Shown: positions 12,393 through 60,116, numbered from the stretch's first letter. The stretch is DNA of 64,000 bases from Candidatus Sericytochromatia bacterium (GCA_044356335.1 JBIKWL010000006.1:9848-73847), one strand, 5' to 3'. Notes: generated by a model not told the origin, from the letters alone. Made by a program: numbers and translations.

Positions 12393-12404
12393 ATTTTTAT
12401 TCCT

Positions 12405-24483: not shown

Positions 24484-27400
24484 CTACAAGCAGATCGCAA
24501 AAGCCTTTTCCATCGCTGTTTTAAGCTCTGCAAAAGCGCTTTCTAGTCGCGGCCAATCCTGCTCTAAGGCTTCCTGATTGTGATCCAATGCCGCTTGCTC
24601 CATGGTTTTGACCAATCTCAGCAGGTGGGAATTGCTGACATTGGAGGTCGCCCCTTTGATTTTATGCAATTGTTGTGCCGCTTGATCGAGATTTCCCGCT
24701 TTGAGACTTTGAGCCAGATATTCTAATTGGGGGGGAATTTCACTTAAATACAGGGTCACCAACTCGCGGGCCCAATCGGAATCCATCATGACCCTTTCGA
24801 GCAGGTATTGAAGATCGAAGGCTTGGCTGTTGACGTTTTCGGGTTGTGGATTTTCGGCAGCCCCATTTTCCAGGCTGGGAAGTTTATCCAGGTATTTTCT
24901 CAGGACCATTTCTAATTCTTTGAACAAGAGCGGTTTACTCAGGTAATCGTTCATGCCCGTACTCAGACAGCGCTCACGGGTGCCTTCTTGAATATCTGCC
25001 GTCAGGGCCACAATCGGCACTTCTGAATTGAGCACCTCTGCTGTTTGGTTGCGAATTTGCCGTGTGGCTTCAAAGCCATCCATACCCGGCATTTGGCAGT
25101 CCATCAAAACCAAAGCATACGGAATTGTCGAAAGAGCCAGTAAAACCTCTTCGCCACTGGCAACAGCATCGGCTTGATAGCCCAGTTTATCGAGCATGCG
25201 CAGGGCCACCAATTGATTGGTGGGATTGTCCTCTGCCACCAAAATGCGCCCCTGGCGTTGGGGCCGATTTTGGCCATTTTCTTGTTCTGTGGGCAAAAAA
25301 AGCTGCCAGCAGTTGCCGTCTCTGTTGAGTAAGCTCAATGCCTCCTCTAAGACGGGTTTGCGTAAGGGTTTGGTCAAACAGCCTTTAAATCCCAATTGTT
25401 TCAGGTTTTCAATCTGGGTATAACCGGTCATGGGGGTTAAAAGCAAGGTTTGGGCCTGAAGCAGATCTGAGTTTTTGCTGAATTGGTGGCCCCACAAGGT
25501 GCCTTTGCCGTCAGGCAGTGTCAAATCGAGCAGGACGATGTCAAACGGGGTGTCTTGACGTTTGGCCTGCCAGGCTGTTTCTAAGGCCGCTTCTCCATTG
25601 CCGACACTGCTTAATTCGCAGTTCCAGCTTTGGCACCAATTGTGCAAGGCCTGATGGGTGGCTTGGCTGGGAGAGGCCAAGAGCAGCCGTTGACCTGTGA
25701 AGGACAACTCTTTGGCGGGCAATGACCGATGGGCGGCTGTTTCAAGTGGAATGCTGAAATAAAAGCAGGCACCTTCACCCTCTTGGCTGTTTAAATGAAG
25801 ACTGCCACCCATTAACTCAACCAATTGTTTGCAAATGGCGAGCCCCAGGCCCGTTCCTCCATATTTGCGCGTGGTCGAGCCATCAGCCTGCATAAATGGC
25901 GAGAAAATTGCATTTTGGCGATCGACGGGAATGCCAATCCCGGTATCTTGGACTTGGAATTCAATCTCTTGTCCTCCGTGCTCGCCGGTGTGCTGGGATG
26001 TGCTCTGTGATGTACTCTGTGCGGCCAAAACAATTTGTCCCTGTTTGGTGAATTTGACGGCATTTCCACCCAGATTGAGCAAGACCTGGCGCAGACGGGC
26101 CGGATCACCCCGCACCCAGAGGGGAACATCGGGGGAGATCAAACAAACCAGATCGAGGCCTTTTTCTTGGGCTTTGACGGCCAACATTTCTGCGGTATCT
26201 TCCAGCAGGGCATGTAAGTCAAAATCCAGCCATTCCAAATCCAGTTTTTGGGCCTCCATTTTTGAGAAATCCAGTAAATCGTTGAGCAGGGTCAAAAGTG
26301 ACTCGCCACTGCGGTGCACAATACTGGCGTATTGCCGCTGCTCAGTATTTAAATTGCCCTCCAATAAAAGTCCACTCATCCCAATAATGCCATTCATGGG
26401 CGTGCGCAATTCGTGGCTGATATTCGCCAAAAATTCACTTTTGGCCTGATTGGCCTGCTGGGCTTCAACGGCCATTGCCTGAGCGCGGCAGCGGCTTTCT
26501 TCGAGCTGAAAATTGGATTCCAGCAGGGCCTCTTCGGCCTTTTTGCGGGCCAGCGTTTGGGCCAGCATATTGGCAAAGGTTTCCAGCACCTGCAACTCTT
26601 CTTTACGCCAATGACGGGTTTGCGTGGCTGAATCAAAACTGATAAACCCTTCCAGGCTGTTTTGCCACACCATAGGCACCACCAGCAAAGCGCGAATCCC
26701 CATATCTTGCCAGAGCTCTTTTTCACGCCAGGCCTCTGAAGGCAGGGCCTGAATATCTGGTACTTCGAGGATTTTAAACTGTTTGAGTGAAGCCATGCCC
26801 CAGGGAAAGAGTTCGGCTGAAACCCCCTGCATTTCGTGAAGGATTGGACGCACCCCTTCGGCATGCCATTCGTGGCTGCTGTAGATTTTATTCTGGGCCC
26901 TGAGATGAAAGAGCAGGCAGCGATCCACACCCAGCAGGCGGCCAATTTCACCCAGGGCCACATCCAGCGCCGTGTCGATTTCTCCCACCGGCAGGTGAAT
27001 AAAACGGGTTGAGAGATGGGTGATTAATGAGAGCAACTCGACTTGGTAGTGTAGAATTTTTTCGACCTGCTCCTGTTCGGTAATGTCTTGCAGCAGAACC
27101 AATTCAGCCTCTTTTTCAGCAAAGAGCAGGGGGTGACTGGTGGTTTTTACCAAAATTTGCCTGCCTGTTTGGGTAATATGCCTTTGTAATTCGACATTTT
27201 CTTGGTTTCCAGGCTGGGGAATATATGCGCTGCCAGTGGCTTTTTGAATCTGATCCAGCCGGAGTGTAAGAAAGGCCTCCTGGCTCCAGCCATAATGGCT
27301 GACAGCAGCTTCATTGACCGCCAAAAAGTACTGGCTTTTGCGGTCGTAGATCCACATCGGCAGCGGATTGTTTTCAAAGAGTTGGCGGTAGCGGGTTTCA

Positions 27401-28446
27401 CTCTCACGCAGATCGCGTTGGGCCTGATATTCTTGGGTTATTTCTCGCAGTAAGCAGATATAACCCAGGTGTTTTTCCTTTTGGTAGACGGGTTCTATTT
27501 TGAGATCAAAGCCCCGAAAATGGCCAGCGAGGGTTTGGGTCAACTCAGAGTGAAAATTTGACCAGGGGGTTTGTTCCCAAAGGGGTTCGGCGCTTTCCCA
27601 GTCACCCAGGCAGAGTTTAATTGGGGTTCCCAGGTTTTTGATGCTCAGGCCCAGCTGTCTTTGAGCCGCTGGGTTAAAATCCACCAGCCGTTCCTGGGGG
27701 TCGGCAATCAGAACGGCGTCTGATAATTTTTCAAAGAGCAGGGTTCGGGCCAGGGGGGGGAGTTCGAGAAAGTTGAGTCGCAGCCCCCAGAGAAACAAGA
27801 GACAACTGATTCCCAAGGCAAACGGTGTGGGGTCAATATTCCATGGGCTATTGCCTGTTAGATAGAGCAGATTTGCCAGCCAGGGGACCAAAGAACCGAT
27901 TAAGAGCACCACAAAGTTTTGGCGATAAGGGGTTCCGACCTGACGCCAGCTCATAAAAAAAAGCAGATTACTGAACAAAACCGCCAGGCCTGAATAAATT
28001 TGAGCAGGCCAATACCAAGGGCCTTTCTCAGACATAAAAACCGGGAAGGGACCCGAGGTGTCGACCCAGGTGTGGACATAAAAGAGGTGATGGCTTGAAT
28101 TGCTATATAACATGAGCAGGATCATGCTCGAAAAACTGAACAAGAGAAGATAGACAGAGGCTCTCAGCCATTGAGAGCGATAGGTATACGAGAGGCTAAA
28201 GACGATTAAAAACGTGGGCAAAAAGCTGGTGCCCAGGTATTCCATATAAATCCAAGGCATCATACTTTTAATTTCAAAAGCACAGAGTTCGCCCGCATAT
28301 CCAGCCGCATAAAGGGTGCTGGCAATTAACAGAGCACTAAAACTCCAGGAACCTGGTTTGCTGCGAAAGCGCCAAGTGCTACCCGCCATACGTAAAAGCA
28401 GGATGGCCGTCCCCAGTAAAAACAGGGAAAAATTATTAAAGTACAT
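24484..28446 (-). CDS. hybrid sensor histidine kinase (multi-TM sensor, PAS/GAF, HisKA, HATPase_c, two receiver domains, C-terminal Hpt)
   Basis: H-box [17 protein letters not shown], then HATPase G-boxes. Receivers are recognisable at [11 protein letters not shown]...[11 protein letters not shown]; Hpt at [10 protein letters not shown]. The true start is likely ATG at 28446 (strong AAGGAGAGG RBS); the track ORF extends to 28602. Confidence 0.85.
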
Positions 28447-28623
28447 ACCTCTCCTTTGTGTGCTGGCTTTTGTGCGGACTTCATTTAAAGCCTGTCTGAC
28501 TCTCATTTCTATTTTAACTGCCTTTTGTTTGTTTTTGATAAAGCGAGATGGGGGGCGGTTCAGGCAAAATGCGGCCCCCTTGACGATTGCACGCTGCATC
28601 ACCTATCTTGAAGGTGACGAATA

Positions 28624-29030
28624 AAAGTGGACCGGGTGATTGCGTGCAGTTTCGGCTGTGCGAGGAAAGTCCGGGCTCCGCAGGGCAGGACGCTGGATAA
28701 CGACCAGTGGGGGGAACCCCAGGACAGTGCCACAGAAAAAAACCGCCCTAAACGCAGCAGACTGTGAGCAAGATACGCAGCAAATACGCAGCACTGAATA
28801 CAGCACACACAGACGCAGGGCAAGGGTGCAAAGGTGGTGTAAGAGACCACCGGCAATTGGGTGACCAATTGGCCAGGCAAACCCCGTTCGGAGCAAGGCA
28901 AACAGAGATAACGGGCTGCCCGCCCAGGTCTCGGGTATGCTGCTAGAGGTGGTCGGCAACGGCCATCCCAGAGGGATAATCACCCCTTGCCTTCGGGCAG
29001 GGACAGAACCCGGCTTATAGGTCCACTTTT
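28624..29030 (+). ncRNA. rnpB: RNase P RNA (bacterial type A)
   Basis: P4 strand GAGGAAAGTCCGGGCTCC at 28661-28679 and ACAGAACCCGGCTTA at 29003-29017. The P1 helix pairs 5' AAGTGGACC with 3' GGTCCACTT. ORFs 28599..28901 and 28603..28983 (minus) overlap the RNA and are judged spurious. Confidence 0.9.
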
Positions 29031-29065
29031 ATTCTTTCTCTCCAGCTTTTTTCAGGAGTCCCGTC

Positions 29066-34921: not shown

Positions 34922-35983
34922 ATGTGGTATCAAAATTTACTCGAAGCAAATCAAATTCCCGATCCCCTGCTGCGCTGGGGAATCCGCTATTACAATTCAA
35001 TGCATCTGCGTCGCCTGGCCAGAGGGGGAGCAGAGGCTCATGAGGCCCGCTTTCAGGCCTTTTTGAAGCAGCTTGAAAAGGCCCCGCTTGCAGCCCTGCC
35101 CGAAAAAGCCAACGAACAGCATTACGAGGTACCCGCTGCTTTTTATCAAAAGGTGCTGGGCCCCCATTTAAAATACAGCTGTGGTTATTGGCCGAGTGGC
35201 CAAGAGAGTCTGGCCGAATCTGAAGCCAAAATGTTGGCCCTGACCTGTGAGCGGGCCCAATTGGAGCAACTCAAACCCGGTCAACAGATCTTGGAATTGG
35301 GCTGTGGCTGGGGCTCGCTCAGCCTTTATATGGCTCAACACTTCCCTGAGAACCCCATCACGGCGGTCTCTAATTCCCACAGTCAGCGTGCCTATATCGA
35401 AACCCAGGCCCAGAGCCGGGGTTTAACCAATCTGCGCGTGATCACCCAGGATATCAACCAGTTTGAACCCGAGCAGGGTTTTGATCGGATTGTCTCGGTT
35501 GAAATGTTTGAACACCTGCGCAATTATCCCGAACTCTTTCGCCGTTTAGAGCGCTGGCTCTTGCCTGGTGCATTGCTCTTTGTGCATATCTTTGGCCACC
35601 ACACCCATGCCTATCTCTTTGAGGTGGAACACGAGCGGGATTGGATGGCTCGCTATTTTTTCAGTGGCGGCACCATGCCCTCACGGGATTTGCTCTTACA
35701 TGTCTGTGAGCCGCTGATCGCCCGCAATCTCTGGGTCGTCAATGGCCAACACTACCAAAAGACCTGTGAGGCCTGGCTGGCCCAAATGGACGCCCAAGAA
35801 GCGGTCATTCGTCCGATTCTGGCAGCCACCTATGGGGCCGAGCAGACCACCCGTTGGTGGGTCTATTGGCGCGTGTTTATGCTGGCCTGCGCTGAACTCT
35901 TTGGCCACAGAGCAGGCCAGGAGTGGCAGGTCTATCATTATTTATTTGAAAAACCCGAGCAGGCAATCAGTTCAACTGACTGA
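34922..35983 (+). CDS. cyclopropane-fatty-acyl-phospholipid synthase family methyltransferase
   Basis: ILELGCGWGSL (SAM motif I) with CMAS-family features: ...RIVSVEMFEH... and ...YFFSGGTMPS.... Confidence 0.75.
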   Translation: MWYQNLLEANQIPDPLLRWGIRYYNSMHLRRLARGGAEAHEARFQAFLKQLEKAPLAALPEKANEQHYEVPAAFYQKVLGPHLKYSCGYWPSGQESLAESEAKMLALTCERAQLEQLKPGQQILELGCGWGSLSLYMAQHFPENPITAVSNSHSQRAYIETQAQSRGLTNLRVITQDINQFEPEQGFDRIVSVEMFEHLRNYPELFRRLERWLLPGALLFVHIFGHHTHAYLFEVEHERDWMARYFFSGGTMPSRDLLLHVCEPLIARNLWVVNGQHYQKTCEAWLAQMDAQEAVIRPILAATYGAEQTTRWWVYWRVFMLACAELFGHRAGQEWQVYHYLFEKPEQAISSTD

Positions 35984-36884
35984 TCACGCTGTTCATGCGG
36001 TGTAAGTGGTTGGCCACTTCGGCCGAGGTCTCATCAATGATCGTCATGATGCCTTTGGCTTGTACCTGTTGGCCCTGCCATTCTTTCTGAAAGCTGCCAT
36101 TCCAACGGCTCCAGGCGTCGTCAAGCTCGCCTTTGATCTGTTGGCGGGCATTGGCATCGATGGTATCGATAAAAGGGCCCTGAGTGGTAAAAAACTGATT
36201 GTAGATCAGATTGGCCTTGAGGGCCTCGTTATAGGTGGTGATGCCTTGTTTCTTGGCTTCGTTGAGCAAGCTGACTGCCTGATCGCGAAACTCCGTGACA
36301 CGGGCCATCATCACTTGTTTTTGCTGAGGGTCCATTTTTCCCCATTGGGAATAAACCTGTTCAGCGGTTTCTGCGGCCTGAGCGGCATAATAGCGGGCAC
36401 CCCAGGTAAATCGGTTGGCTGTTTCGCGGGATTGTTTGGCCGCGTCACTGTGGGCGGCAATTAATTGCACTGCCTGTTGGGGGGCCTGCACGGGTTGGGT
36501 CTCCTGTTGAAGGATTTCCTGGATATTGGCCATGGCTGGCCCTTCGGGAATGTCTTTGGGCAGGGTAAATATAATTTTGGCGGGCTCAGCCGGTTTTGTT
36601 GGGCCTGCCGGCTGGGACGGCTGCTGGGGTTTGTTGAGATAGTCCACGGGCTTGCCATCGGGGCGGTGAAAGGGCGAGAGGGTGGATTGTTTGTCGCGCA
36701 GCAGATTGATATTCGGCTGAATGCCACGGGCCATCGGCTGGGTGCTGACACTGTCTCCACTGAAACCTGAGGGAGGAGCGCTGGGAGGCTCATTGCCGCG
36801 TGCAAAGGGCGACATCGGGGAGCGGTTGGGGGATGCTCCCGGTATGGAGGGGTTAGAAGCGGGCTGCGGTTGTACCGAATTCAT
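35967..36884 (-). CDS. hypothetical protein with Pro/Gln/Ser-rich disordered N-terminal half and helical C-terminal domain; paralogue of 36889..37902
   Basis: 305 aa. The C-terminal region (...ITTYNEALKANLIYNQFF...DDAWSRWNGSFQKEWQ) aligns with the neighbour's ...ATYDEALYANLAMDELL...QEAWKGWTTGVEE. Confidence 0.5.
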   Translation of the reverse strand: MNSVQPQPASNPSIPGASPNRSPMSPFARGNEPPSAPPSGFSGDSVSTQPMARGIQPNINLLRDKQSTLSPFHRPDGKPVDYLNKPQQPSQPAGPTKPAEPAKIIFTLPKDIPEGPAMANIQEILQQETQPVQAPQQAVQLIAAHSDAAKQSRETANRFTWGARYYAAQAAETAEQVYSQWGKMDPQQKQVMMARVTEFRDQAVSLLNEAKKQGITTYNEALKANLIYNQFFTTQGPFIDTIDANARQQIKGELDDAWSRWNGSFQKEWQGQQVQAKGIMTIIDETSAEVANHLHRMNSVISQLN

Positions 36885-36888
36885 GGGA

Positions 36889-37902
36889 CTACCTCTGGAT
36901 CATGACCCGGCCGAGGATCTGGTCTACCTGATTGAGGTAAGCCGTCACCGTACCAACCGAGCGGGTAAATACCTCGGGCGCTGCAGGCAGCTTCTTGGAG
37001 AAGAAGAGATACTGGCTCTCTTCGACACCCGTGGTCCAACCTTTCCAGGCTTCTTGAACGCTGCGGTTGGCATCTTGGGCCAAACCGGGCACCTGTGGGA
37101 AGCGCGGCAGCAATTCATCCATGGCCAAATTGGCGTAGAGGGCTTCGTCGTAAGTGGCTTTGGTGTACTCTTCGGCGCGTTTGAGGGATTCCAGAGCTTG
37201 GCTTTTTTTGGACTCCAACTCGCTCAGGGTTTGATTCAATTGCTGAGGAGGCATCCGGCCTTGGCTCTGTTCAATGCGCTGAGCCAAAACAGCGGCTTCT
37301 TTGGCAAGGCCTTCGGCATGGCGTGATTCTTCTTCAGCGTGGCGGCGGTTGTCCAAGGACTTTTTGGCGTGCAAATCGATGTGGCGGAAAGCAGTGCCAG
37401 GATCTTGAACCTGTTGTAGGTCACCAGCCACCACTTGGCGGGCCTGGTTGATATCGGTTCCGGGAGGAGCAGCAGGCATAGAGCTTGGGGGGGGCATGCC
37501 CGGCGGGGGCATACCTGGGCCGCCCTGACCCGGCTGTTGGGGTTGGGGTTGCTGGGCTTTGTCTTTGCCAAAGCCAAACATCCCAAAAATACCTTTAAAG
37601 AGTTTGACCACAAGGCTGACGATTGTATTCAGAATTTTGGCGATAATGCTGGTCAGAGAGGTGAAGATATTGGCCATGCCGGTGGCCGCGCCACCAATGG
37701 AAGAAGAGGCACCAGATGCTGCCATGGCTCCCTGTACATACCCTGTTTGCTGAGGGCCGGTGGGGCGATAGACGTCATTGGCATAGCCGGGGGCACCATA
37801 AGGAACTTGGCCAGAGGGCACATAAGGACCATTTTGATTGCCATAATTGGGGACAGGGGGTCCGTAGGCCTGGTACTGGGGCGAAATATTCACTTTAGAC
37901 AC
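36889..37902 (-). CDS. hypothetical protein with Tyr/Pro/Gln/Gly-rich prion-like N-terminus, one hydrophobic helix, poly-Pro/Gln linker and helical C-terminal domain
   Basis: 337 aa. N-terminus MSKVNISPQYQAYGPPVPNYGNQNGPYVPSGQVPYGAPGYANDVYRPTGPQQTGY. Hydrophobic segment NIFTSLTSIIAKILNTIVSLVVKLFKGIFGMF, then QQPQPQQPGQGGPGMPPPGMPPP. A 4-nt gap separates it from the downstream paralogue. Confidence 0.5.
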   Translation of the reverse strand: MSKVNISPQYQAYGPPVPNYGNQNGPYVPSGQVPYGAPGYANDVYRPTGPQQTGYVQGAMAASGASSSIGGAATGMANIFTSLTSIIAKILNTIVSLVVKLFKGIFGMFGFGKDKAQQPQPQQPGQGGPGMPPPGMPPPSSMPAAPPGTDINQARQVVAGDLQQVQDPGTAFRHIDLHAKKSLDNRRHAEEESRHAEGLAKEAAVLAQRIEQSQGRMPPQQLNQTLSELESKKSQALESLKRAEEYTKATYDEALYANLAMDELLPRFPQVPGLAQDANRSVQEAWKGWTTGVEESQYLFFSKKLPAAPEVFTRSVGTVTAYLNQVDQILGRVMIQR

Positions 37903-38002
37903 CTCCGCATGATCGTGCTCTCTGATCTGACTGATCTATACATAGCCACTTGAGCGTGCTTTCTTGTTTATCTTTAAACAAAAATTAGTAATTTCTTTAG
38001 AT

Positions 38003-38554
38003 CTACTTATGTTTTTTTTTGTGTTTTTTTGCTGGGCGTCGGCCGGATCTGCGCCGGAGACGCTTCAACATCGAAACAATTTCATCGGCGAGTGTATGGC
38101 TAAAACCGCCCAACCACAAGCCCACAAACCCCACTCCCACATAAACAGGATTCTGAAAAAAGACGGCCGTCTGCTTGGCGAGGCCAAAACCCTGCTCTGC
38201 CAATTGAGCTTGGTCAAGGGCCAGGGCCACACGGGTCAGGGTGGCAAAAAGCAGGGCGACCCAAACCGAAAGGTAGAGCAAACGCGTCAGCACGCCCAGA
38301 ACCGGTCCGTGCGAAAAAGGGGAACGGTGAGGAACCAGTTTGCGGTAGGGGATCCAAATCCAGCGAAACCAGCCCCAACGCTTATATTGTACACTTTTTG
38401 TATCCAGATCTCCACTAAACATCAAGCCTGCGAACAAAAAGCAGGCAACCAGAAGGGCTGTAACACTCAATTCGTGCGAGATCATCCAGCCGAGCCAGGC
38501 CATTGGCAGGGCCGTGAACCATGTGATTTTGTCATGGGTTTTACCACTGGGCAC
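38003..38554 (-). CDS. DUF457/YdjM-like membrane-bound metal-dependent hydrolase
   Basis: 183 aa, multi-TM, with conserved His motifs (GKTHDK, SGDLDTKS...HRSPFSHG, FSHTLADEIV) matching the YdjM-family pattern. Basic C-terminal tail RRRSGRRPAKKHKKKHK. Confidence 0.45.
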   Translation of the reverse strand: MPSGKTHDKITWFTALPMAWLGWMISHELSVTALLVACFLFAGLMFSGDLDTKSVQYKRWGWFRWIWIPYRKLVPHRSPFSHGPVLGVLTRLLYLSVWVALLFATLTRVALALDQAQLAEQGFGLAKQTAVFFQNPVYVGVGFVGLWLGGFSHTLADEIVSMLKRLRRRSGRRPAKKHKKKHK

Positions 38555-38563
38555 AGGCAGAAC

Positions 38564-40021
38564 TCAATCGCTGCGAAGGCGTTCGACAAAAATATGTTTG
38601 CGGTCTTCCAATTCGCGAATGCCCCAGAGAATGGAGAGGCGATCGTGGGGCATCACAGCAAAGAGTTGGCCAATGCAGCGTTGGCCATCGACCCAGCCAA
38701 AAACAGCCTGGGCCAATTTGGAGAAAACCTCGTTTTTGGCGGGTTCGCGAATCAATTCCGGGATGTCCCGATCCTGATAATCGGGCCAGAGGGTTTCCAT
38801 CTCCTGCAGATAATTCTGGGCCTCTGCGAGCAGCACTTTCTGATCATAATCCAGGTATTGGCCAGAGCCTTCGGTAGGCGTGCCGGGAATAAATGAAAAA
38901 TTCCCGCTTTCCCAGGAGAGCAAATCCATCAGCAGCAAATCGCCGCCGAGGTGTTTGCCTTTGATATCCGCGTAGTGAATATTCCCGTGATTAAACCCAA
39001 TGCTGCCCTGTTGCCAGGCATTCCAGATCAGGCATAAACCATCTACTTGGGCCTGCATCAGGCGTGTCACGGCCTGCATGAGACGAAAGGATTCAAACAG
39101 GCGAATGCGGGGCAATATTGCTGGGCTCACCGATGTGGGGCTGGGTTCTGATTCGGGGTAGGCTTTGTCTAAGACGACCCGAACCATCTGTTGCAATTGG
39201 CGGCTGCTGGCAAAGCGGTGTTGGGGGAATTTTTGCATACAGCTCAGAATCAATTGGTTGAGATCGGGGCCGACGCTGGGGTTGAGTTGCATCGGCGGGA
39301 TGGGATCGCGACTGAAAATTTCGAGCACGGCGGTGCCAGGGTTGGAGGCATTAAAGGGCATTTTGCCCGTGAACAATTCGTACATCAACACACCCAACGC
39401 GTAGAGATCGCTCTGAGCGGTGATCAGACGGCTGTTTTGGATTTGTTCGGGCGACATATAAGCCACGGTTCCCAAGAGGCTACCATCAATCGTGAGTTGG
39501 TTTTGTCCCTCAATTTTGGCAATCCCAAAATCCAGTAATTTGACCTGTTTTCCCGTTATAATCATCACATTTTCGGGTTTAATGTCCCTGTGAATAATGT
39601 GTTTGGAGTGGGAGTATTCTAAGGCGTCCAATAATTGTTCGATCCAGAGCAGAATTTCGCGGTGGGAAGGGGCATGTCTTTCGACATATTCTTTTAGGCT
39701 CAACCCCTGTAAAAACTCCACCACCATAAAATAATCACTGCCAATTTGCTTAAAATCATAGACCGACATGATATTGGTATGGCGCAATAATTGCATCGTC
39801 AGGGCTTCATTGCGGAAACGCATAATCCGCATTTCGCGATCCGGGCCTGACATATCCGGAGAGAGAGTGAGATGTTTGACCGCCACTGTCTCACCCGAAG
39901 CAATGTCCATGGCTCTAAAAATGGCAGCTGTTGCGCCGCGGCCAATTTCTTCAATCAGAACATAGCGCCGATTCACCTCAAACCCTGGAGAAATATGCGA
40001 TGAATACAGGGAATCAGACAT
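38564..40021 (-). CDS. Ser/Thr protein kinase (Hanks-type) with C-terminal DUF4388-like domain
   Basis: Kinase subdomains IGRGATAAIFRA (Gly loop), VAVK, HRDIKPENVMI and DFGIAK. The C-terminal ~200 aa (...GLCLIWNAWQQGSIGFNHGNIHYADIKGKHLGGDLLLMDLLSWESGNFSFIPG) fit the DUF4388 pattern. Confidence 0.75.
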   Translation of the reverse strand: MSDSLYSSHISPGFEVNRRYVLIEEIGRGATAAIFRAMDIASGETVAVKHLTLSPDMSGPDREMRIMRFRNEALTMQLLRHTNIMSVYDFKQIGSDYFMVVEFLQGLSLKEYVERHAPSHREILLWIEQLLDALEYSHSKHIIHRDIKPENVMIITGKQVKLLDFGIAKIEGQNQLTIDGSLLGTVAYMSPEQIQNSRLITAQSDLYALGVLMYELFTGKMPFNASNPGTAVLEIFSRDPIPPMQLNPSVGPDLNQLILSCMQKFPQHRFASSRQLQQMVRVVLDKAYPESEPSPTSVSPAILPRIRLFESFRLMQAVTRLMQAQVDGLCLIWNAWQQGSIGFNHGNIHYADIKGKHLGGDLLLMDLLSWESGNFSFIPGTPTEGSGQYLDYDQKVLLAEAQNYLQEMETLWPDYQDRDIPELIREPAKNEVFSKLAQAVFGWVDGQRCIGQLFAVMPHDRLSILWGIRELEDRKHIFVERLRSD

Positions 40022-40085
40022 GGGCCGAGACAGTTAACAAAGGGGAATTAAACATATTTCTTATTGTACAGGAAGACAAGCAATC

Positions 40086-40478
40086 TCATGAAGCCTGTCT
40101 AAATAAGCGCTGTAACTCACGCAGCATAAACTGATCATCGATCGGCTTGAGCCAAGTTGCCAGGGGTTGGATATCTTTAATGCGGCTGTCTTTGCGCAGA
40201 ATGTCTGAATTACCCGTTAAAAAAATAACCGGAATATTGTACCGCTGACGCAACAGCAAAGCCGCTTCGACGCCGTTCATCTGGCCTGAAAGGCCAATGT
40301 CCATTAAGACGCAGTCAGGGGGCGTTCTGGCCGCTGCTGATAGCACTGCTTCGCCGCTGTTGACAGTGGCCAGGACCTGATGCCCTGCTTCGATTAAAAC
40401 AGTTTCCAAAAACATACTGATCACAAAATTGTCTTCGGCCACAATAAATGAATTTATCTGTTTGCTTGGATCCTTCAC
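40086..40478 (-). CDS. single-domain response regulator (CheY-like receiver)
   Basis: 130 aa with the receiver-domain pattern FIVAEDNFVISM...CVLMDIGLSGQMNGVE...PVIFLTGNS. Overlaps the upstream kinase gene by 4 nt. Confidence 0.8.
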   Translation of the reverse strand: MKDPSKQINSFIVAEDNFVISMFLETVLIEAGHQVLATVNSGEAVLSAAARTPPDCVLMDIGLSGQMNGVEAALLLRQRYNIPVIFLTGNSDILRKDSRIKDIQPLATWLKPIDDQFMLRELQRLFRQAS

Positions 40479-41938
40479 GAAGCGGTTTCCACCTCTTGAA
40501 AAGAGATTTTATAACAGCATCCCCGCTCTTGGGGGAGTTGCTCCAATCTGCCTTGCAATTGTTTTACCAAATTTTGGATCAAACGCAAACCGAGAGAGGG
40601 ACTCTTTGGCAAGTTCAGTTCGGCAGGCAGGCCGGGCCCATCATCGCTAAAAATCAAACAATAGCCGCCATGGAGCTGTTTGGCCAATTCCACCCGAATA
40701 CAACCTTCTAAGCGGTCCACAAAGGCATGTTTGAGGGCATTGGCGGTGAGCTCATTTAAGATCAATCCCAGCGGGATGGCTGTATCAATTTGAAAGAAGA
40801 TCTCATCAATCTTTAATTGCAGGCTTATTTTTTGTGCCGGAGAGGTCAGAATCTGCACCATTTGCTCCAAAAGCCGCTGTACATAATCTTTGTAAGGAAT
40901 ATGGCTGAGGCTGTCGGAGTCATATAACATCTCATGTACCATCGCAATGGAGGAGATCCGATGTTGGGTTTGGCGAATGGTTTCAACCGCTTCGGGGTTT
41001 TTGATATGGTTCATTTGCAGCGCCATTAAAGAGACAATCACCTGCAAATTATTTTTGACCCGGTGGTGAATTTCTTGTAAGAGAATTTCTTTTTCTTGGA
41101 GCGAGGCCCGAATTATTTCTTCGCTGACTTTGCGATTAAAAAACAAAGGGGTTTCTGCTGAACTGTGGTAGGTATCTGTAGCCAAATATTCACTGATGCG
41201 GTGGGGGGGAGCCATAATAAAGGTGCAGGAAGCATCTCCCCGCGCCCGGCAAGCAATTTCGACGGCTGTCAGCGGTATGCCAAAACTGGCCTCACACCAG
41301 CCTGATGAATAAGCCGCATTCATAATACACACGGCATCTTGAGAGCGTTGTCCGCGCGAAAGCCACGAGTCGGCTTCAAAGGAATACGGGTGATGGTATT
41401 TGAGAAAATAATTTTCATCGGGGCTGGGGTTGCTCTCTGGCAATATTTCGACAAAGCCCCAGCCCGCATAGGCAAAGTGAACAGGGCCTGCTGAGAGTTT
41501 TTCAACCGGGTCATGTAGTCCCATTTTGGCATGAAAACATTTGGCGTCGGCAATGCCAAGCACATGCCCGATATCAAAGAGAAAATCCTGTCCCGTCTGA
41601 AAGGCGGTTTGAGCATCTCGATCACTGTAGAGATGGCGCAGATAATTAAAAAAATCACAGGACAAGGATGACGCGCGCACCAAAACATAGCGTTCGTTTT
41701 CAACCTCGATTAAACCTTGAGTGGGTTTAAATACCAGATTTTCGAAATAGCGTTGGACGTTGTCTTGGGCCTGTTGAAAAATGGCTGAAAACGGCTCCGG
41801 GACGCTGACGGTTGCGCCGATTTCAGCGTGAATCACGGGTTGATGCTGCAGATCCTGTATTTCTTGTTCTAAAACGGCGATCCGCGCTAACAATTCTTCC
41901 CGTGAAAAATCTGCATAGTCCTGAATTTGTGTGCCCAT
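40475..41938 (-). CDS. sensor histidine kinase, HisKA_2/HWE-type, with N-terminal XylR-N/V4R (4-vinyl-reductase-like) ligand-sensing domain
   Basis: The N-terminal ~250 aa resemble the XylR/DmpR effector-sensing region and include the Cys-containing V4R-like segment GWCEASFGIPLTAVEIACRARGDASCTFIM. H-box LLQEIHHRVKNNLQVIVSL; ATPase LILNELTANALKHAF ... DDGPGLP. No TM segments, so cytoplasmic. Confidence 0.65.
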   Translation of the reverse strand: MGTQIQDYADFSREELLARIAVLEQEIQDLQHQPVIHAEIGATVSVPEPFSAIFQQAQDNVQRYFENLVFKPTQGLIEVENERYVLVRASSLSCDFFNYLRHLYSDRDAQTAFQTGQDFLFDIGHVLGIADAKCFHAKMGLHDPVEKLSAGPVHFAYAGWGFVEILPESNPSPDENYFLKYHHPYSFEADSWLSRGQRSQDAVCIMNAAYSSGWCEASFGIPLTAVEIACRARGDASCTFIMAPPHRISEYLATDTYHSSAETPLFFNRKVSEEIIRASLQEKEILLQEIHHRVKNNLQVIVSLMALQMNHIKNPEAVETIRQTQHRISSIAMVHEMLYDSDSLSHIPYKDYVQRLLEQMVQILTSPAQKISLQLKIDEIFFQIDTAIPLGLILNELTANALKHAFVDRLEGCIRVELAKQLHGGYCLIFSDDGPGLPAELNLPKSPSLGLRLIQNLVKQLQGRLEQLPQERGCCYKISFQEVETAS

Positions 41939-42126
41939 ATTTTTAGGATTATATTTAGGGTTATTTTAATACTCTGCTTGAATACTCTGTGTTAACAGAA
42001 ATCTGCCAATCTCATTAGGCCATATTTTGAAGTTAAAAGCAATCTGCCGAAAAAAAGGCAATCCAGTATAATCAAGACTGAGCTTTGCGTTCGCATTTTC
42101 GTGGGGAGATCATTCAGGTTTAATTT

Positions 42127-44052
42127 ATGTCAATATCACAAGCTGAAGTCTATTTTCAGGCTGCCCAGGCCCTCCAAGCGCAGGGCAATTTGGATGCGGC
42201 TGTCAGCCAATATCAGCAGGCCCTGCAATGCGATCCGCGTTTGGCCGCTGCTTATTTGCAATTGGCTCAGATGCAACAGACCTTGGGGCAGCCTGCACAA
42301 GCTGTGCAAAACCTCTTAAAATACATCCAATTTCGGCCTAACGAAGTGGCTGTGTATGTGGTGATTGGGAATCTATTGCTGTTTTTGAAACAACCGGAAC
42401 AGGCCCAGCGCTATTTTTTAAAGGCCCTTGAACTTGAACCGGGCCATCCCGAGGCGCTGAGTACCTGGCTGACAATTAAAACCGATCACGATCCCGCCAA
42501 AATGTTGGATCTTTTGCTGAGTATGGCTCAGTCTCAGCCCGAATTGCGGAGTATTATCGCCTGTCAAGTGGGTCGCATGATGGAGACTGTTCATAACAGT
42601 CAAGAAGCAGCTAAATGTTATGCTTTTGCTCTCGAAGATCCCCTTTTGATGGAGCGTCAAGCATGGGAATTAAAAAGCCAATTGCTCGTACCTGTGATCT
42701 CTCCCGATCGGGCCTATCAAGAAAAATACCTGCAAGGCACCCAAGCTTGGTTGGACCATTGGGAACAGGCTCCAGCACCTGAAACACCCTGGATTTTGCC
42801 TGATTTTAGCAATGTGGAGGCCTATTTCTTAAATTGGTTACCCCTTGAAGGCATGGCCTATACCTATCTCAATCCCTACCGTGAGCGTCAGCGTTTGGGG
42901 GCGATTCTCAAACGCTGGCTGCCGGTCTTGCCTCAAAGCAGCCGGACGTCTTTGCGCCCAGAGCGCCGCCGGGTTGGGTTTGTGCTTGGGCCCTCAGGCG
43001 CAGTTTTGAATTTTATGGTGGGTCTCTTGCAGCGTTTGCCTCCAGCTGATCTGGATGTGCATATTTTGCACACCCACCGCATCAGCGCTGCCCATTTTTC
43101 CCAAGAGCAGCTGCGCCCAGAATTTAACTACCATTTGCTGGCTGATGATTTGGCTGCGGCCTATCAGCAGGTTTTAGCCTTGGATTTGGATATTCTCTAT
43201 TTGACCGAACCCAATGCTCAGCAGCCCCTGCAATCGCTGCTTTCATCCTTTCGCCTGGCCCCGGTTCAGGTTACTTCTTGGTTGAGTTCAGGCAGTACAG
43301 GCCAGCCCGAAATGGATTATTTTCTCTCTTCTCATGTGCTTGAACAAGCTGAAAATCCCCAGCGTTTTTATAGCGAGCAACTGGTTTTACACCAAACCAT
43401 TCCGACTTATTTCTTTCGGCCCGAAACAGTCAATACTTATACTCGGGCGGATTATGGCTTGCCTGAAGCGGACCATTTGTATATTTGTCCCCATGTGATG
43501 AGTAAAATTCAGCCCGATTTGGACACGCTTTTTGAAGGCATTTTGCGCCAAGACCCGCTGGGCCATCTGGTCTTGCTCACCAATCCCGACAATCGCCACT
43601 ACCAGCGAATTTTGTTGCAGCGCTTTGAAAATACATTTCCCGATCTGATGTCTCGGATTTGGTTTCTGCCCTATCTCAAGCCGCAAGAGTATTTGAATTT
43701 ATTGACGCTGGGCGACGTGATGCTCGACCCACTCTATTTTGGGGGCGGCACCACGACCTATGAAGCTCTCTCAGCAGGGATTCCCATTATCACTTGGCCT
43801 GCCGATCGCCTGCATGGGCGGATTACCCATGCCTGTTATCTCAAAATGGGCCTGTCTGATTGTGTCGCACATTCTGCCGAGGACTATATTCAAAAAGCTG
43901 TTGCAATCGCCTCAGACCCCACACTCAATCAACGCATGCGTACGCAGATTCTGGCTCAGGCACCGCTGATCTTTGAAGAAGATCTTGCCGTGGACGAACT
44001 GATCGCTTTTTTATGCCAAGTAGAGGTGCGCGCCCGAAAGACGGCAACCTGA
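42127..44052 (+). CDS. TPR-repeat + GT41 (O-GlcNAc-transferase-like) glycosyltransferase, intact paralogue of the frameshifted gene at 14122..16339
   Basis: 641 aa. N-terminal TPRs, then ...RVGFVLGPS..., ...LDLDILYLTEPNAQ..., ...LAPVQVTSWLSSGSTGQPEMDYFLSSH... and ...FGGGTTTYEALSAGIPIITWPAD..., parallel to the other copy. Confidence 0.7.
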   Translation: MSISQAEVYFQAAQALQAQGNLDAAVSQYQQALQCDPRLAAAYLQLAQMQQTLGQPAQAVQNLLKYIQFRPNEVAVYVVIGNLLLFLKQPEQAQRYFLKALELEPGHPEALSTWLTIKTDHDPAKMLDLLLSMAQSQPELRSIIACQVGRMMETVHNSQEAAKCYAFALEDPLLMERQAWELKSQLLVPVISPDRAYQEKYLQGTQAWLDHWEQAPAPETPWILPDFSNVEAYFLNWLPLEGMAYTYLNPYRERQRLGAILKRWLPVLPQSSRTSLRPERRRVGFVLGPSGAVLNFMVGLLQRLPPADLDVHILHTHRISAAHFSQEQLRPEFNYHLLADDLAAAYQQVLALDLDILYLTEPNAQQPLQSLLSSFRLAPVQVTSWLSSGSTGQPEMDYFLSSHVLEQAENPQRFYSEQLVLHQTIPTYFFRPETVNTYTRADYGLPEADHLYICPHVMSKIQPDLDTLFEGILRQDPLGHLVLLTNPDNRHYQRILLQRFENTFPDLMSRIWFLPYLKPQEYLNLLTLGDVMLDPLYFGGGTTTYEALSAGIPIITWPADRLHGRITHACYLKMGLSDCVAHSAEDYIQKAVAIASDPTLNQRMRTQILAQAPLIFEEDLAVDELIAFLCQVEVRARKTAT

Positions 44053-48099: not shown

Positions 48100-51072
48100 G
48101 TGCACCCTCTCGAAAAACTTTATCCACAGCTCAAAAACAGTGAGCCCTCCTCTCTGCAAATGGATTCTTTTTTGGCACATATGGATCTGATGCAAAGCTA
48201 TTTGGTTTTTTGCTTTGGTCTGCAGGCTGAAAAAAAGATGAGCTTCTACCATTTGGGTGAAATGCATTTTTATTCAAATCAAGTTTATTTATCTGACAGA
48301 TATGACTCTTTGGACATCATCAAAAAAAGTCTCTTTTCTGCCCAGGATTATTTTCAAAAGGGATATGCCTCTTATGAGAGAAATAATTCAGATTTTTATT
48401 TATTGGAAGATGAAATTGTTGGATTTGAATTAACTTGTAATTATTACATTGTGTTATTTGATTTTTTAATTGGAGACAGAGCTAAAAGTGTCGAAATGGC
48501 CAGATCCGAATTGGATAAAAATAAGGATCTGATGCATGAAGACTTGAAGTCCATCTATAAATACATCATAGAGCATGATTTAAACTGTTCTCCTTTCGAG
48601 ATTTTAAGTGCATTCTACCGAGGTGATTTTAAAAATATTTTTTTTAAAACGATAAAATTATCTCAATATCAATTAGATGAAGATGATTTTTCTCGTTCAA
48701 TTAAATTAAAAATGGATTTACTCTTTTACACAGAAGAGTATGGTTTTAATTATCAACAGGTAACATGGCGTTCCTCTCTTTTAAAGCATCTCTATGCATC
48801 TGAATACCCTGAATCAGAAAAAGTAAACGTCTTGAGCCTGATTCAAAATGATCACAGCTTCAAAGATAGCTGTTTAAAAAGCCAACTCAATTATTTTGAA
48901 CTCAATCAGACACTGCCTGAATCCATCGATATTTTGGTTGATTGGCAATGCCAAGATCTAAACCGGCTGACATCGTCTTTGCGGATGGTCAAAGACGGAG
49001 GTCTCTGTTTAATTGCTGTACCGCGTTCCTGTACAAATCCCGAAGTCATCAGAAAAGAAATGGAAATTGGAATTCAAGCAAGCTGTTTTTTAATAGACAG
49101 GGAAAGCTTTTCTGATATTTTAATTGTCTATGGTTTTAAAAATAGAAAATTTAATCTGCATACCCGCCTTTTGATTTTGATGCGTCCGGATTCTGTTCAA
49201 GCCATGGGTGGCGCTGATATACAGCTATTCAAAAGCCGTGCAAGGCTTAAACATGCGGGTATTTGCTCAGATATTTCACTGGCTTGCCGCTTAGATAGCA
49301 GAGTTTATGCTTGTATCTATGTTGTTGGCTACTACCATGAAATATATAAATTTAATTATCTAAATCAAAGTAATCTGCCAAAATTATGCATGCCCATCGC
49401 TTCTCTCTGCTTTGAAGAGAGTCAGGTTTCGGACTACTTTATTGGTATGTTTAAGCATGATCTGCAAGAAAAAATTACTTCTAATCACAAAAATTTGCTT
49501 TGTATTGAAAATATAAATTTTTTAAGACAATCAATTTTAAATAAGTTAGCATTAGATTCAAATTGGAATAATCGCTTTTACAAGGAACTGGCCAAGTCCT
49601 GTGATTATTTTATTCCACAAAGTCAAAAAGAAATGGATCTATTATTCCCCCAACGGGATTACAAAGAATTCGAACTGGTTTTTAATGGCTGTAATTTTGC
49701 GGGTGTTGTCGAAGAAAAGTCAAACATTTTTGTGGATACACACAAAATTAATGATTATATCATTTGTGTCGGACGGATCCAAGCCAACAAAAATCAACTT
49801 TTTTTGGCTTATGCCTTACGGGAAACCGAGATCCCACTTGTCTTAATTGGCAGAGAATTTCAGCAAGGCTATCTCAAATTATGCCAAGATCTGGGCAATA
49901 ATCAGGTTTATCATTTTGAGGATGTATCTTCGGACATGTTGCTCTCGGCGTTACAAAACGCCCGACTATTTGTTTTACCGAGTTTTTCAGAGGTCTCTCC
50001 CCTTTCTTCTATTGAGGCAGCAATGATCGGTGTGCCTGTGGTTTTAACCCAAAATTCAGGCCAAGATGAGCAATTTAAAGATGCTTTTTATTATTGTGAT
50101 CCCTGGGATCCAGAAAACATAAAAGAGGTAATTGTTAAGGCTTTTTATGCTGATAACAGCGATAAAATAAAAAGAGCTAAAGAAATAGCTGAAAAAACGT
50201 CGTCATGGTCGATTATGTCTGATAAAATTGCAAATATAATTTATATGCTGATTGGAAGAGAGAACGGCGATAATTATATTCAATATCAGGACAAGTGGTT
50301 TAAACTCCTCCCAGCTTTGGCAGAACAGGATAAATCCGTTGATATCGCACATTCAGCTTATCAGCCGAGTATTTATCCAATTGCCAATGTCGGTACCTTT
50401 CTTGCCCAACAATATGATCCGCTCATATACAAAGACGTGTTTTTAATTGTCAATACAGACCTTGCGGAATTCAAAATGAAACAATTGGGTTTTGAAAACA
50501 CCATTAAACAAATACCAAGTCCCAATCAATCAACTTATTTGGGTGGGGTGAGTCTGGCCCTTGAAGATGCTTGCCAAAGGAATTTGCTCTGTTTCTATGA
50601 CCCTGAAAATATCTTTTCATGGCAAGAAACCATCCTGGCTTATATTGAGGGGCACAGTCCAGAAGATAACTGTGTTTTATTTATTTGCACGTATGATTGT
50701 GATGACAGCCACTATCCAGAAGAAGAGATCTCAGATTATTTAATCAGCCAAGGATGTGACCTTGAAAGTATTCCAAACATCTCCATCTTGACGGATTTTA
50801 AAGCACAAAAACAATTAAAAGACCTGTTTAAATCTGTCGACATCCTTGTTTTTCCAGCCAAGACCCTCTGGGGATACGAGTCTTTGTACTATCAAATCAT
50901 TTACTCTGAAAAAACAGTCATTACCCACCCGTTTAATAGGGGGATTCACACTCAGAAAATTATTTATTTAGAGCCATTTGAATCACTTTGCCAACTCCCT
51001 TCTTTTGCGGAGATTCCAGTTTCTGTTCAGACCCTGAGCCAGTGCTTAAAATTGGCCGATCCCTCTCGCTGA
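48100..51072 (+). CDS. 990-aa multidomain glycosyltransferase (central GT4 domain with EX7E motif) encoded in an AT-rich island; N- and C-terminal domains unassigned
   Basis: GT4 C-terminal core: ...ICVGRIQANKNQLFLAYAL...LVLIGR...FVLPSFSEVSPLSSIEAAMIGVPVVLTQNSG.... Codon/amino-acid usage is strongly AT-biased (K, N, I, F, Y rich), unlike the flanking genes. Confidence 0.6.
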   Translation: MHPLEKLYPQLKNSEPSSLQMDSFLAHMDLMQSYLVFCFGLQAEKKMSFYHLGEMHFYSNQVYLSDRYDSLDIIKKSLFSAQDYFQKGYASYERNNSDFYLLEDEIVGFELTCNYYIVLFDFLIGDRAKSVEMARSELDKNKDLMHEDLKSIYKYIIEHDLNCSPFEILSAFYRGDFKNIFFKTIKLSQYQLDEDDFSRSIKLKMDLLFYTEEYGFNYQQVTWRSSLLKHLYASEYPESEKVNVLSLIQNDHSFKDSCLKSQLNYFELNQTLPESIDILVDWQCQDLNRLTSSLRMVKDGGLCLIAVPRSCTNPEVIRKEMEIGIQASCFLIDRESFSDILIVYGFKNRKFNLHTRLLILMRPDSVQAMGGADIQLFKSRARLKHAGICSDISLACRLDSRVYACIYVVGYYHEIYKFNYLNQSNLPKLCMPIASLCFEESQVSDYFIGMFKHDLQEKITSNHKNLLCIENINFLRQSILNKLALDSNWNNRFYKELAKSCDYFIPQSQKEMDLLFPQRDYKEFELVFNGCNFAGVVEEKSNIFVDTHKINDYIICVGRIQANKNQLFLAYALRETEIPLVLIGREFQQGYLKLCQDLGNNQVYHFEDVSSDMLLSALQNARLFVLPSFSEVSPLSSIEAAMIGVPVVLTQNSGQDEQFKDAFYYCDPWDPENIKEVIVKAFYADNSDKIKRAKEIAEKTSSWSIMSDKIANIIYMLIGRENGDNYIQYQDKWFKLLPALAEQDKSVDIAHSAYQPSIYPIANVGTFLAQQYDPLIYKDVFLIVNTDLAEFKMKQLGFENTIKQIPSPNQSTYLGGVSLALEDACQRNLLCFYDPENIFSWQETILAYIEGHSPEDNCVLFICTYDCDDSHYPEEEISDYLISQGCDLESIPNISILTDFKAQKQLKDLFKSVDILVFPAKTLWGYESLYYQIIYSEKTVITHPFNRGIHTQKIIYLEPFESLCQLPSFAEIPVSVQTLSQCLKLADPSR

Positions 51073-59216: not shown

Positions 59217-59240
59217 AAAATCTTTGTTTAAAATCGACGC

Positions 59241-60116
59241 TTAACGGCGCTGCATGCTCATCATTTGTTGCGGAGACATCATGCTGCTGACGCTGCTGAA
59301 ACCACCTTGGGGGGTGATTTGGATATTGATCCCAATCGGTTGACCGACAGCCGGACCATTGTTGCCAGGCAAGCTGGGCAGGGTGGAATAACCATTGCCG
59401 GGATTAAAGTTGGTCAGGGCAGCTCCGCCATTGGTGGGGCGGCTGCCGTCTTCGGTGATGCTGGCAATGGTGCTGAGGTCTTTGTTGGTGCTTTTGGCTT
59501 CCATGGCGCCTTTGATGGCGCCATAGGTCATGGTGATACCGGCACCGACGCCACCTGCGATGGCGATCAGCTTCAAGCCGCCGACAACCCCTGATTTCAG
59601 GGCGTCTAAAATACCACCGGCAAATCCGGGGGGCATACCAACGGGAGCTGCGGCCAAACTGGCACCAACGGCACCGACTGCGGCGCCTTGGCCTGAGGCT
59701 TTGACCATCTGATAAATGCTGTAGCCAGCGAGACCCACACCACCGGCCACACCTGCGGTTGGACCAATCGTGGTAATGATATTCTTGACGGCACCAAAGA
59801 CGGCGTCGCTGCTGTCTTTGATCGCTTTGATGGCGCCCAATTTGGCCCCTTCCATCATGCTGTTGGCTTCGTCGTCATAGGCCACGATATCTGCTTTTTG
59901 GCTGTCGAAAGCCACGGTGGGAATATTGTTCTTTTTGAGTGCGCTGATATTCAAAGAATCGCCATAAGCCACATAGGCTTTGCCGTTGGAGGTGAAAAAA
60001 ACTTCATCTAAGCCATTATTTTTGGTCTTTAAGGCGGCCTGTTCAATTGTGATACCGGGCTTGAGGGCCCTTACTCCCTGAACGGCGATGCTGACTCCGT
60101 TAATGGTCAAACTCAT
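59241..60116 (-). CDS. Gly/Ala-rich glycine-zipper protein of unknown function (no signal peptide)
   Basis: 291 aa. Central GxxxG/AxxxG zipper stretches (GPTAGVAGGVGLAGYSIY...GAAVGAVGASLAAAPVG...GGLKLIAIAGGVGAGITMTYGAIKGA). C-terminal Gly/Asn/Pro/Ser/Met-rich tail. Confidence 0.5.
   Translation of the reverse strand: MSLTINGVSIAVQGVRALKPGITIEQAALKTKNNGLDEVFFTSNGKAYVAYGDSLNISALKKNNIPTVAFDSQKADIVAYDDEANSMMEGAKLGAIKAIKDSSDAVFGAVKNIITTIGPTAGVAGGVGLAGYSIYQMVKASGQGAAVGAVGASLAAAPVGMPPGFAGGILDALKSGVVGGLKLIAIAGGVGAGITMTYGAIKGAMEAKSTNKDLSTIASITEDGSRPTNGGAALTNFNPGNGYSTLPSLPGNNGPAVGQPIGINIQITPQGGFSSVSSMMSPQQMMSMQRR

Follow-up and report, generated by a model that had tools for sequence, protein, structure and literature searches.

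A six-gene locus of a Sericytochromatia bacterium as a probable lineage-specific accretion beside an orphan pair of paralogous proteins

Introduction

Sericytochromatia are non-photosynthetic relatives of cyanobacteria and, to our knowledge, a class without known cultured representatives. Here we describe six co-directional genes in a stretch of 64,000 nucleotides from a Candidatus Sericytochromatia bacterium (GCA_044356335.1 JBIKWL010000006.1:9848-73847), which as a whole we call the window. The genes lie on the minus strand and encode, in order, a sensor histidine kinase (HK), a single-domain response regulator (RR), a Hanks-type Ser/Thr kinase (STK), a DUF2227 membrane protein and two paralogous proteins that we call LC1 and LC2. 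An earlier note on this DNA had read the six as one signaling module that couples two phospho-signaling chemistries to candidate low-complexity substrates. We argue that this 6-kb stretch is probably not one system but a lineage-specific accretion of separable units on a Sericytochromatia (Blackallbacteria-like) chromosome, and that ordinary two-component and Hanks-kinase genes were recruited stepwise beside a much older, autonomous LC1-LC2 pair.

HisKA_2-type kinases typically pair with receiver-only regulators, and the HWE/HisKA_2 kinases with single receivers, such as LovK-LovR and PhyK, are the closest systems to the first two genes: like them, HK has an HRVKN H-box and a HATPase_c domain, is a soluble cytoplasmic protein and is translationally coupled to a receiver-only RR, which among NCBIfam models most resembles PhyR-type receivers. 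However, the HK sensor is of the XylR_N/V4R kind rather than a LOV, PAS or HWE-associated domain, and HK reaches 124.9 bits against the NCBIfam PhyK model, whose cut-off is 750, and so is no PhyK orthologue. Pfam and NCBIfam searches found no PhyR, NepR or sigma-EcfG partner in the flanking genes. The sensor instead resembles the "A domain" of XylR, DmpR and MobR, in that residues 57-245 of HK match the MobR, XylR_N and V4R models (V4R under its cut-off), but it is fused to a histidine kinase and not to a sigma-54 AAA+ activator.

The third gene recalls the PatA-type proteins of cyanobacteria (PixE, PixG, PatA), in which PATAN (DUF4388) and receiver (REC) domains are combined. Most multi-domain DUF4388 proteins carry REC, PATAN-REC is the commonest multi-domain PATAN architecture, and PixE uses its PATAN domain to bind both the motor (PilB1) and the platform (PilC) of the pilus (bioRxiv 10.1101/2021.06.11.447907). 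Here too a PATAN-like domain and a receiver occur together, in adjacent genes, but the former makes up the C-terminus of a Hanks kinase, with a marginal Pfam match, and the latter is a protein of its own. Because REC and the PATAN-like tail belong to separate genes 64 nt apart, a PatA-type response regulator was ruled out, and the split REC/STK-PATAN arrangement represents a minor new variant of PATAN signaling. Pilus genes were absent from the Pfam annotation of 20 further large open reading frames (ORFs) of the window and from the gene table of its 28-48 kb region.

The DUF2227 protein is, like YdjM and other DUF457 proteins, a small polytopic membrane protein, and it has HRxF(S/T)H and SHxLAD motifs collinear with those of E. 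coli YdjM; it is nevertheless a full DUF2227 member, and regulation by LexA pertains to E. coli ydjM. For LC1 and LC2 we can offer a functional analogy only. PopZ-type scaffolds likewise have a disordered, compositionally biased N-terminus followed by a compact helical C-terminal domain, but we found no sequence similarity or specific fold similarity, LC1 adds an amphipathic helix, and the two form a paralogue pair.

Results and Discussion

Gene order in relatives

An ORF check recovered the six co-directional genes with exactly the coordinates and spacings given in the earlier note: from HK to LC2, a 4-nt overlap (HK/RR) and then gaps of 64, 9, 100 and 4 nt (Table 1). Exact copies of the locus are present on JGI and Logan metagenome contigs, and the six-gene region contains no Rfam family or tRNA. 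Using tblastn and gene tables, we set the six proteins and the genes around them against some 30 related loci; the flanks are a GT41 gene upstream and CMAS and PHB_acc genes downstream. Sixteen of the loci lie in GTDB species representatives, 15 of them labeled Sericytochromatia or Blackallbacteria and one "Cyanobacteriota bacterium", and the named homologues come from Candidatus Blackallbacteria and Candidatus Sericytochromatia metagenome-assembled genomes (MAGs).

Table 1. Features of the locus on the window, and small proteins upstream of LC1 in relatives (own coordinates of loci L005 and L015-L017)
Feature	Position	Strand	Size or remark	Basis
Sensor histidine kinase (HK)	40475-41938	-	487 aa	Pfam/NCBIfam
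Single-domain response regulator (RR)	40086-40478	-	130 aa	Pfam/NCBIfam
Hanks-type Ser/Thr kinase (STK) with PATAN-like tail	38564-40021	-	485 aa	Pfam/NCBIfam
DUF2227 (PF09988) membrane protein	38003-38554	-	183 aa	Pfam
Promoter/operator-like element upstream of LC1	37939-37992	-		spacer alignment and regular expression
LC1	36889-37902	-	337 aa as listed; 334 aa from the probable start, GTG 37893	
LC2	35967-36884	-	305 aa	
Small signal-peptide protein upstream of LC1	L005 3877-4377		position held by DUF2227 elsewhere	
Small signal-peptide protein upstream of LC1	L015 7299-7778		position held by DUF2227 elsewhere	
Small signal-peptide protein upstream of LC1	L016 1816-2262		position held by DUF2227 elsewhere	
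Small signal-peptide protein upstream of LC1	L017 7439-7888		position held by DUF2227 elsewhere	

The gene orders in these relatives are nested. LC1 and LC2 stand in tandem, separated by 1-13 nt, wherever both neighbors are visible, including seven loci in which LC1 is 36-41% identical and a more distant pair (P0090 and P0086 in L032). DUF2227-LC1-LC2 is found in all loci with LC1 at least 58% identical. STK is missing beside this cassette in nine distinct loci with LC1 58-75% identical (L003/L011, which are one contig, L010, L012-L014, L033, L034 and L038); their flanks vary by genome, and DUF2227 there closely abuts unrelated upstream genes. In the seven more distant loci, LC1-LC2 is all that is left of the six genes. 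STK precedes DUF2227, at a distance of 2-9 nt, only in loci with LC1 at least 80% identical (L006-L009, L035, L036 and L037), and HK-RR accompanies the cassette only in L006-L009, which represent the window's genus, and in L036. The last has the full six-gene order with HK 65%, RR 64%, STK 72% and LC1 86% identical, and carries the LC1 homologue P0003, which NCBI labels Candidatus Blackallbacteria.

The remaining two STK-bearing loci are the most informative about HK-RR. L037 has STK directly after GT41; both flanks (GT41; CMAS and PHB_acc) and the STK-DUF2227-LC1-LC2 block are syntenic with the window, and HK-RR is absent. L035 has the same GT41-STK junction and likewise no HK-RR; the upstream GT41 flank is the only one it has in common with the window. 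Since the pair is missing from these syntenic loci, HK-RR is a separable insertion or deletion unit. The conservation of gene order that the earlier note had proposed to check thus extends to all six genes in L006-L009 and L036, but not to HK-RR in L035 and L037, nor to STK where LC1 is at most 75% identical.

Four of the distant loci encode, directly upstream of LC1-LC2, a protein of about 150-166 aa with a signal peptide, which has no Pfam match and is unrelated to DUF2227 (Table 1).

A conserved element upstream of LC1

The spacer between DUF2227 and LC1 is conserved in DNA, as its alignment shows, among lineages whose proteins are only 58-75% identical. The conserved order is TAATTTTTGTTTAAG-ATAAACAAG (including the palindrome TTGTTTA-N3/4-TAAACAA), 17 nt, CTATGTATAGATCAG and GCGGAGGTTT-N7-GTG. 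In the window, the AT-rich box TAATTTTTGTTTAAAGATAAACAAG (37987-37963), which contains TTGTTTA-N4-TAAACAA, is followed by a 17-nt spacer and CTATGTA (37945-37939), and GGAGG and a GTG start follow 46 nt downstream. The palindrome recurs in many lineages and has the form TGT-N9/10-ACA. Equivalent spacers of L003, L005, L010, L013, L015-L019 and L034-L037 carry the element; as a regular expression, the family consensus TAAnTTTnGTTTAAnnTAnnCAAG-N17-CTAT matches 14 of 20 upstream regions, among them those of six of the seven loci with LC1 36-41% identical, despite the different gene upstream. The exact 15-mer of the box occurs once in the window (37973-37987) and, in nine loci, only at the LC1 spacer.

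Alignment of the same region bears on where LC1 begins. GTG 37902 reads GTT in relatives, whereas GTG 37893 is conserved, lies 8 nt after GGAGG and gives the 334-aa protein of the database entry P0001. GTG 37893 is therefore probably the true start, in which case the gap between DUF2227 and LC1 is 109 nt rather than 100. That the element and a strong Shine-Dalgarno sequence are conserved in most lineages whatever gene lies upstream argues for an autonomous LC1-LC2 transcription unit, and the evidence favors a dedicated promoter/operator-like element for this pair. A scan of 35700-42300 for consensus sigma-70 promoters and intrinsic terminators gave nothing above shuffled expectation, and the boundaries of operons cannot be set by that route.

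Two copies of the box with two mismatches, at 59218-59232 (+) and 60201-60215 (-), flank a 291-aa ORF (59241-60116) that has no Pfam match. The box thus has three matches in the window against 0.38 expected from shuffles, and the extra copies might reflect a small regulon or chance.

Separable units or one module

These observations lead us to envision an accretion of four units, which we regard as the probable history of the stretch. The old core would be LC1-LC2, a translationally coupled paralogue pair restricted to Sericytochromatia, with its own promoter-like element and a strong ribosome-binding site. DUF2227, a membrane protein with His motifs, would have become attached upstream of this pair in one sub-clade; STK with its PATAN-like tail would have joined upstream of DUF2227 only in a Blackallbacteria-level clade; and an accessory HK-RR would have been inserted between GT41 and STK in some lineages only.

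The integrated module of the earlier note, in which HK-RR would feed the PATAN-tailed STK and STK would phosphorylate LC1 and LC2 as scaffold or condensate-forming substrates, can draw on the co-direction and tight spacing of the genes, on the six-gene order kept in the window's genus and the more diverged L036, on the adjacency of STK to DUF2227 in all genomes with LC1 at least 80% identical, on the frequent fusion of PATAN to REC and on the prion-like composition of the LC1 tail. The same comparison that documents this order, however, removes HK-RR from L035 and L037 and STK from the side of the cassette in the nine loci with LC1 58-75% identical and in the seven more distant ones, and the LC1-LC2 element is conserved over most of the class. 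In genomes that have no STK beside it, DUF2227 also closely abuts unrelated genes. In addition, the clade that keeps STK also keeps its unrelated neighbors (GT41, CMAS and PHB_acc), so that inherited synteny suffices to explain the adjacency. The order in the window's genus and L036 stands, but at wider range the module dissolves into a nested patchwork in which LC1-LC2 has an element of its own, and we consider a single integrated system unlikely.

Several points weigh against accretion as we describe it. The six-gene order persists in L036 although HK and RR there have diverged to 65% and 64% identity. Wherever STK is present, 2-9 nt separate it from DUF2227, so that a functional link between STK and the cassette is possible within that clade, and with it a kinase input to LC1-LC2 that would be confined to the clade; the 9-nt gap between STK and DUF2227 in the window implies read-through into DUF2227. 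Our view extends 8 kb to either side of each cassette, and orthologues of STK or HK-RR may sit elsewhere in the same genomes. Finally, the sigma-70 scan did not flag the LC1 element, and conservation is the sole ground for calling it a promoter.

The LC1 and LC2 proteins

LC1 and LC2 are paralogues, as the earlier note had proposed: BLASTP aligns them with 26% identity over 178 aa (E 5e-10), the two families have invariant residues in common (PxxPxG, a His, TY[D/N]EAL and W..W), and the same fold is predicted for their C-terminal domains. AlphaFold models built from the family alignments reach a pLDDT of about 90 for LC1 147-337 and LC2 116-305. Both models have an identical topology, in which a short helix leads into two long ones of about 45 residues each and one of 18 residues, and a beta-hairpin then precedes the last helix; they thus predict a domain of about 190 aa in which a long three-helix bundle is followed by the hairpin and last helix.

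What precedes this domain differs between the two proteins. LC1 consists of a disordered N-terminus (aa 1-73), an amphipathic hydrophobic helix (aa 74-108), a Pro/Gln/Gly linker (aa 109-146) and the helical-bundle domain (aa 147-337). Its first 73 residues are rich in Tyr, Pro, Gly, Gln and Asn (58% Y/P/G/Q/N, 11% Tyr, 4% charged), and this composition is kept across the family (57%, 13% and 3%, with ranges of 10-19% for Tyr and 1-6% for charged residues) although sequence identity drops to 26%. By composition alone, the tail fits a prion-like or FUS-like domain. The hydrophobic helix is exactly 35 aa long, without insertions or deletions, in 19 of 19 aligned sequences. With 51% I/L/V/F/M, a hydrophobic moment of 0.40-0.68 and regularly spaced polar residues, it fits an amphipathic membrane-binding or oligomerizing helix better than a plain transmembrane span. 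LC2 has no hydrophobic helix, only a Pro/Ser-rich disordered N-terminus ahead of the C-terminal domain at aa 116-305; its residues 1-105 are 1% Tyr and 15% charged, a composition unlike that of prion- or FUS-like domains, and contain two invariant SPF motifs, at aa 25 and aa 70. The description of both proteins as dominated by low-complexity Y/P/Q/G sequence accordingly holds for aa 1-73 and 109-146 of LC1 but not for LC2, nor for the C-terminal 190 or so residues of either, which are predicted to be folded.

The family is small. A profile of the shared domain retrieved 22 representatives among 1.84 billion proteins, and the domain has no relative in Pfam or NCBIfam and no informative one in the PDB; DUF2227, LC1 and LC2 have no match in PHROGs. 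Only two of the distant members come with a source name, one a Sericytochromatia and the other a "Pedobacter sp." on a 2.2-kb contig. Compared with L006, LC1 and LC2 are 97% and 96% identical, above every neighboring gene (84-95%). LC1-LC2 is thus an undescribed orphan pair of Sericytochromatia only, conserved where both neighbors can be examined and unusual in architecture, since LC1 joins a Tyr-rich disordered tail and a helix of fixed length to a new helical domain.

The tight coupling and shared fold of LC1 and LC2 suggest stoichiometric co-production and a hetero-oligomer. We tentatively propose, as a reading that is possible rather than probable, that LC1-LC2 is a membrane-associated structural or scaffolding heteromer. 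In such a complex the C-terminal domains would pair, the 35-aa helix of LC1 would hold the assembly at the cytoplasmic membrane, and the Tyr-rich, charge-poor tail of LC1 and the SPF-motif tail of LC2 would act as arms for multivalent interactions. If the pair is a true core component of the envelope or of a scaffold, it would serve as a lineage marker and would be one of the few bacterial cases in which a low-complexity domain is conserved in its composition. A more elaborate version, in which the Tyr-rich tail of a membrane-tethered scaffold drives self-association or condensation as in FUS and, in the Blackallbacteria clade, comes under the control of a PATAN-tailed STK fed by the two-component pair, strikes us as improbable.

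Another reading would make LC1-LC2 a two-component membrane-active or secreted pair: a heterodimeric substrate resembling WXG/Esx proteins, or a bipartite toxin that forms alpha-helical pores as ClyA and XaxAB do. The sole resemblance to the WXG family is a W-x-x-W(-x-G) motif; WXG100/Esx was ruled out by the missing Pfam and NCBIfam matches and by a domain of about 190 aa with four to five helices and a hairpin, and a specific similarity to the ClyA/Xax/Yax fold was not found. We give such a pair only a slim chance and retain the scaffold as our tentative reading.

One MAG encodes a second, solitary C-terminal domain of the LC1 type on a different N-terminus (L021 7413-8558), in a protein of 381 aa without the hydrophobic helix. 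It has no LC2 partner; 1.5 kb from it, the other strand encodes an unrelated Ser/Thr kinase of 585 aa.

The DUF2227 membrane protein

The fourth gene had been described as a DUF457 membrane hydrolase of the LexA-regulon type. It encodes instead a full-length member of DUF2227 (PF09988, E 1.7e-48, 165 bits) with the His motifs KTHD, SGDLD, HRSPFSH and SHTLAD, and DUF457/YdjM (PF04307) was ruled out, there being no match even at E<=10; the LexA label is not transferable. BLASTP against E. coli YdjM aligned only two short collinear His motifs (E 0.044), and YdjM itself scores below threshold against the DUF2227 model (E 0.052), so that a distant superfamily link between the two is possible. A literature search found no paper mentioning DUF2227; both Sericytochromatia and Blackallbacteria are named in two papers, one of them a metagenomic survey of Lake Tanganyika. 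The start of the gene lies only 9 nt from STK.

The Ser/Thr kinase and its PATAN-like tail

STK is a Hanks-type kinase by its Pkinase match (PF00069, 175.9 bits; kinase domain aa 20-277) and by its motifs VAVK (aa 46), HRDIKPEN (aa 144), DFG (aa 164) and SPE (aa 190). The assignment of its tail to DUF4388 is less firm. Residues 311-408 (38798-39091 in the window) reach 25.9 bits against the DUF4388/PATAN model PF14332, whose cut-off is 25, and the tail of the L035 orthologue reaches only 18.0 bits, under the cut-off. The kinase half of the earlier assignment is thus secure and the DUF4388 half marginal. Full-length orthologues with 68-72% identity occur in L035, L036 and L037; the 68% identity of the L035 protein takes in the tail. 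When the tail itself served as query, the one homologue returned was an uninformative fragment of 121 aa. Since no multi-domain PATAN architecture is commoner than PATAN-REC, signaling from REC to PATAN is plausible where RR and STK coexist. By analogy, RR may signal to the tail of STK in the lineages that have both.

A kinase of this kind could also belong to anti-phage defense, with STK as a PD-T4-6-like kinase and the locus as a defense island. The PADLOC models for PD-T4-6 and mad6 match STK with E-values down to 6e-75, and NCBIfam MADS6 gives a sub-threshold match. The PADLOC matches are limited, however, to the generic kinase domain (aa 16-298), and MADS6 reaches only 152.5 bits where its cut-off is 460. 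PADLOC matches none of the other five proteins, PHROGs has no match for DUF2227, LC1 or LC2, and the context is housekeeping and syntenic. With only the generic kinase domain matched, we set the defense island aside as barely credible.

The histidine kinase and receiver

Together, HK and RR make up a conventional two-component system, cytoplasmic and of the HisKA_2 type. HK has an N-terminal coiled segment, a sensor (aa 57-245; 41204-41770 in the window), HisKA_2 (aa 289-362) and HATPase_c (aa 388-480). Its HisKA_2 match (PF07568) is 89.8 bits against a cut-off of 22.3, with the HRVKN H-box at aa 292, and that to HATPase_c (PF02518) 30.6 bits against 26.4. RR matches Response_reg (PF00072) with 52.1 bits, retains E15/D16, the phospho-acceptor D60, T88 and K111, and has no output domain in Pfam or NCBIfam. 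Where HK ends and RR begins, the HK stop codon and the GTG start share a 4-nt overlap, as the earlier note had described.

For the small-molecule, aromatic-type sensor proposed for HK, the matches are mixed. XylR_N (PF06505) passes marginally, with 23.4 bits against a cut-off of 23, and the NCBIfam MobR V4R model matches aa 57-244 with E 1.4e-10, but V4R itself (PF02830) remains under its gathering cut-off (28.3 against 31 bits). Judged by these profile matches, the sensor is probably a homologue of the domain that recognizes aromatic effectors in XylR, DmpR and MobR. The closest homologues of HK outside the genus, with 48-71% identity, sensor included, occur on metagenome contigs of 32-44% GC (L022-L030), and a metagenome scan with HK found no RR or STK homologue adjoining them. 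Some differ in architecture, one being 1077 aa long (L026) and another having an insertion (L029). This distribution suggests a sensor-kinase that is widespread and moves between phyla.

The remainder of the window

Outside these genes the window consists of ordinary chromosome and includes genes for isocitrate lyase, malate synthase, HemA, BioY and FecCD as well as RNase P RNA. The genes for isocitrate lyase and malate synthase are adjacent (11118-14021, -) and form a glyoxylate-shunt gene pair. The RNase P RNA is of bacterial class A (28624-29033, +; Rfam RF00010, 282 bits) and sits in the gap after a large hybrid histidine kinase gene (24484-28602). Two large adjacent ORFs of 1001 and 949 aa (5036-8041, -, and 8068-10917, -), where the GC content is 46-52%, lack any Pfam match at E<=1e-5. 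A 990-aa glycosyltransferase (48100-51072, +) has a GT4 domain only in aa 552-695; this block has 35% GC, compared with about 52% elsewhere in the window, and may have been acquired horizontally. Finally, a 263-aa protein of the proteasome family (PF00227; 33396-34187, +), which may be an Anbu/BPH-type bacterial proteasome homologue, is encoded beside a PHB_acc_N (PF07879) gene, and occupies the same place in L006, L007, L009 and L036.

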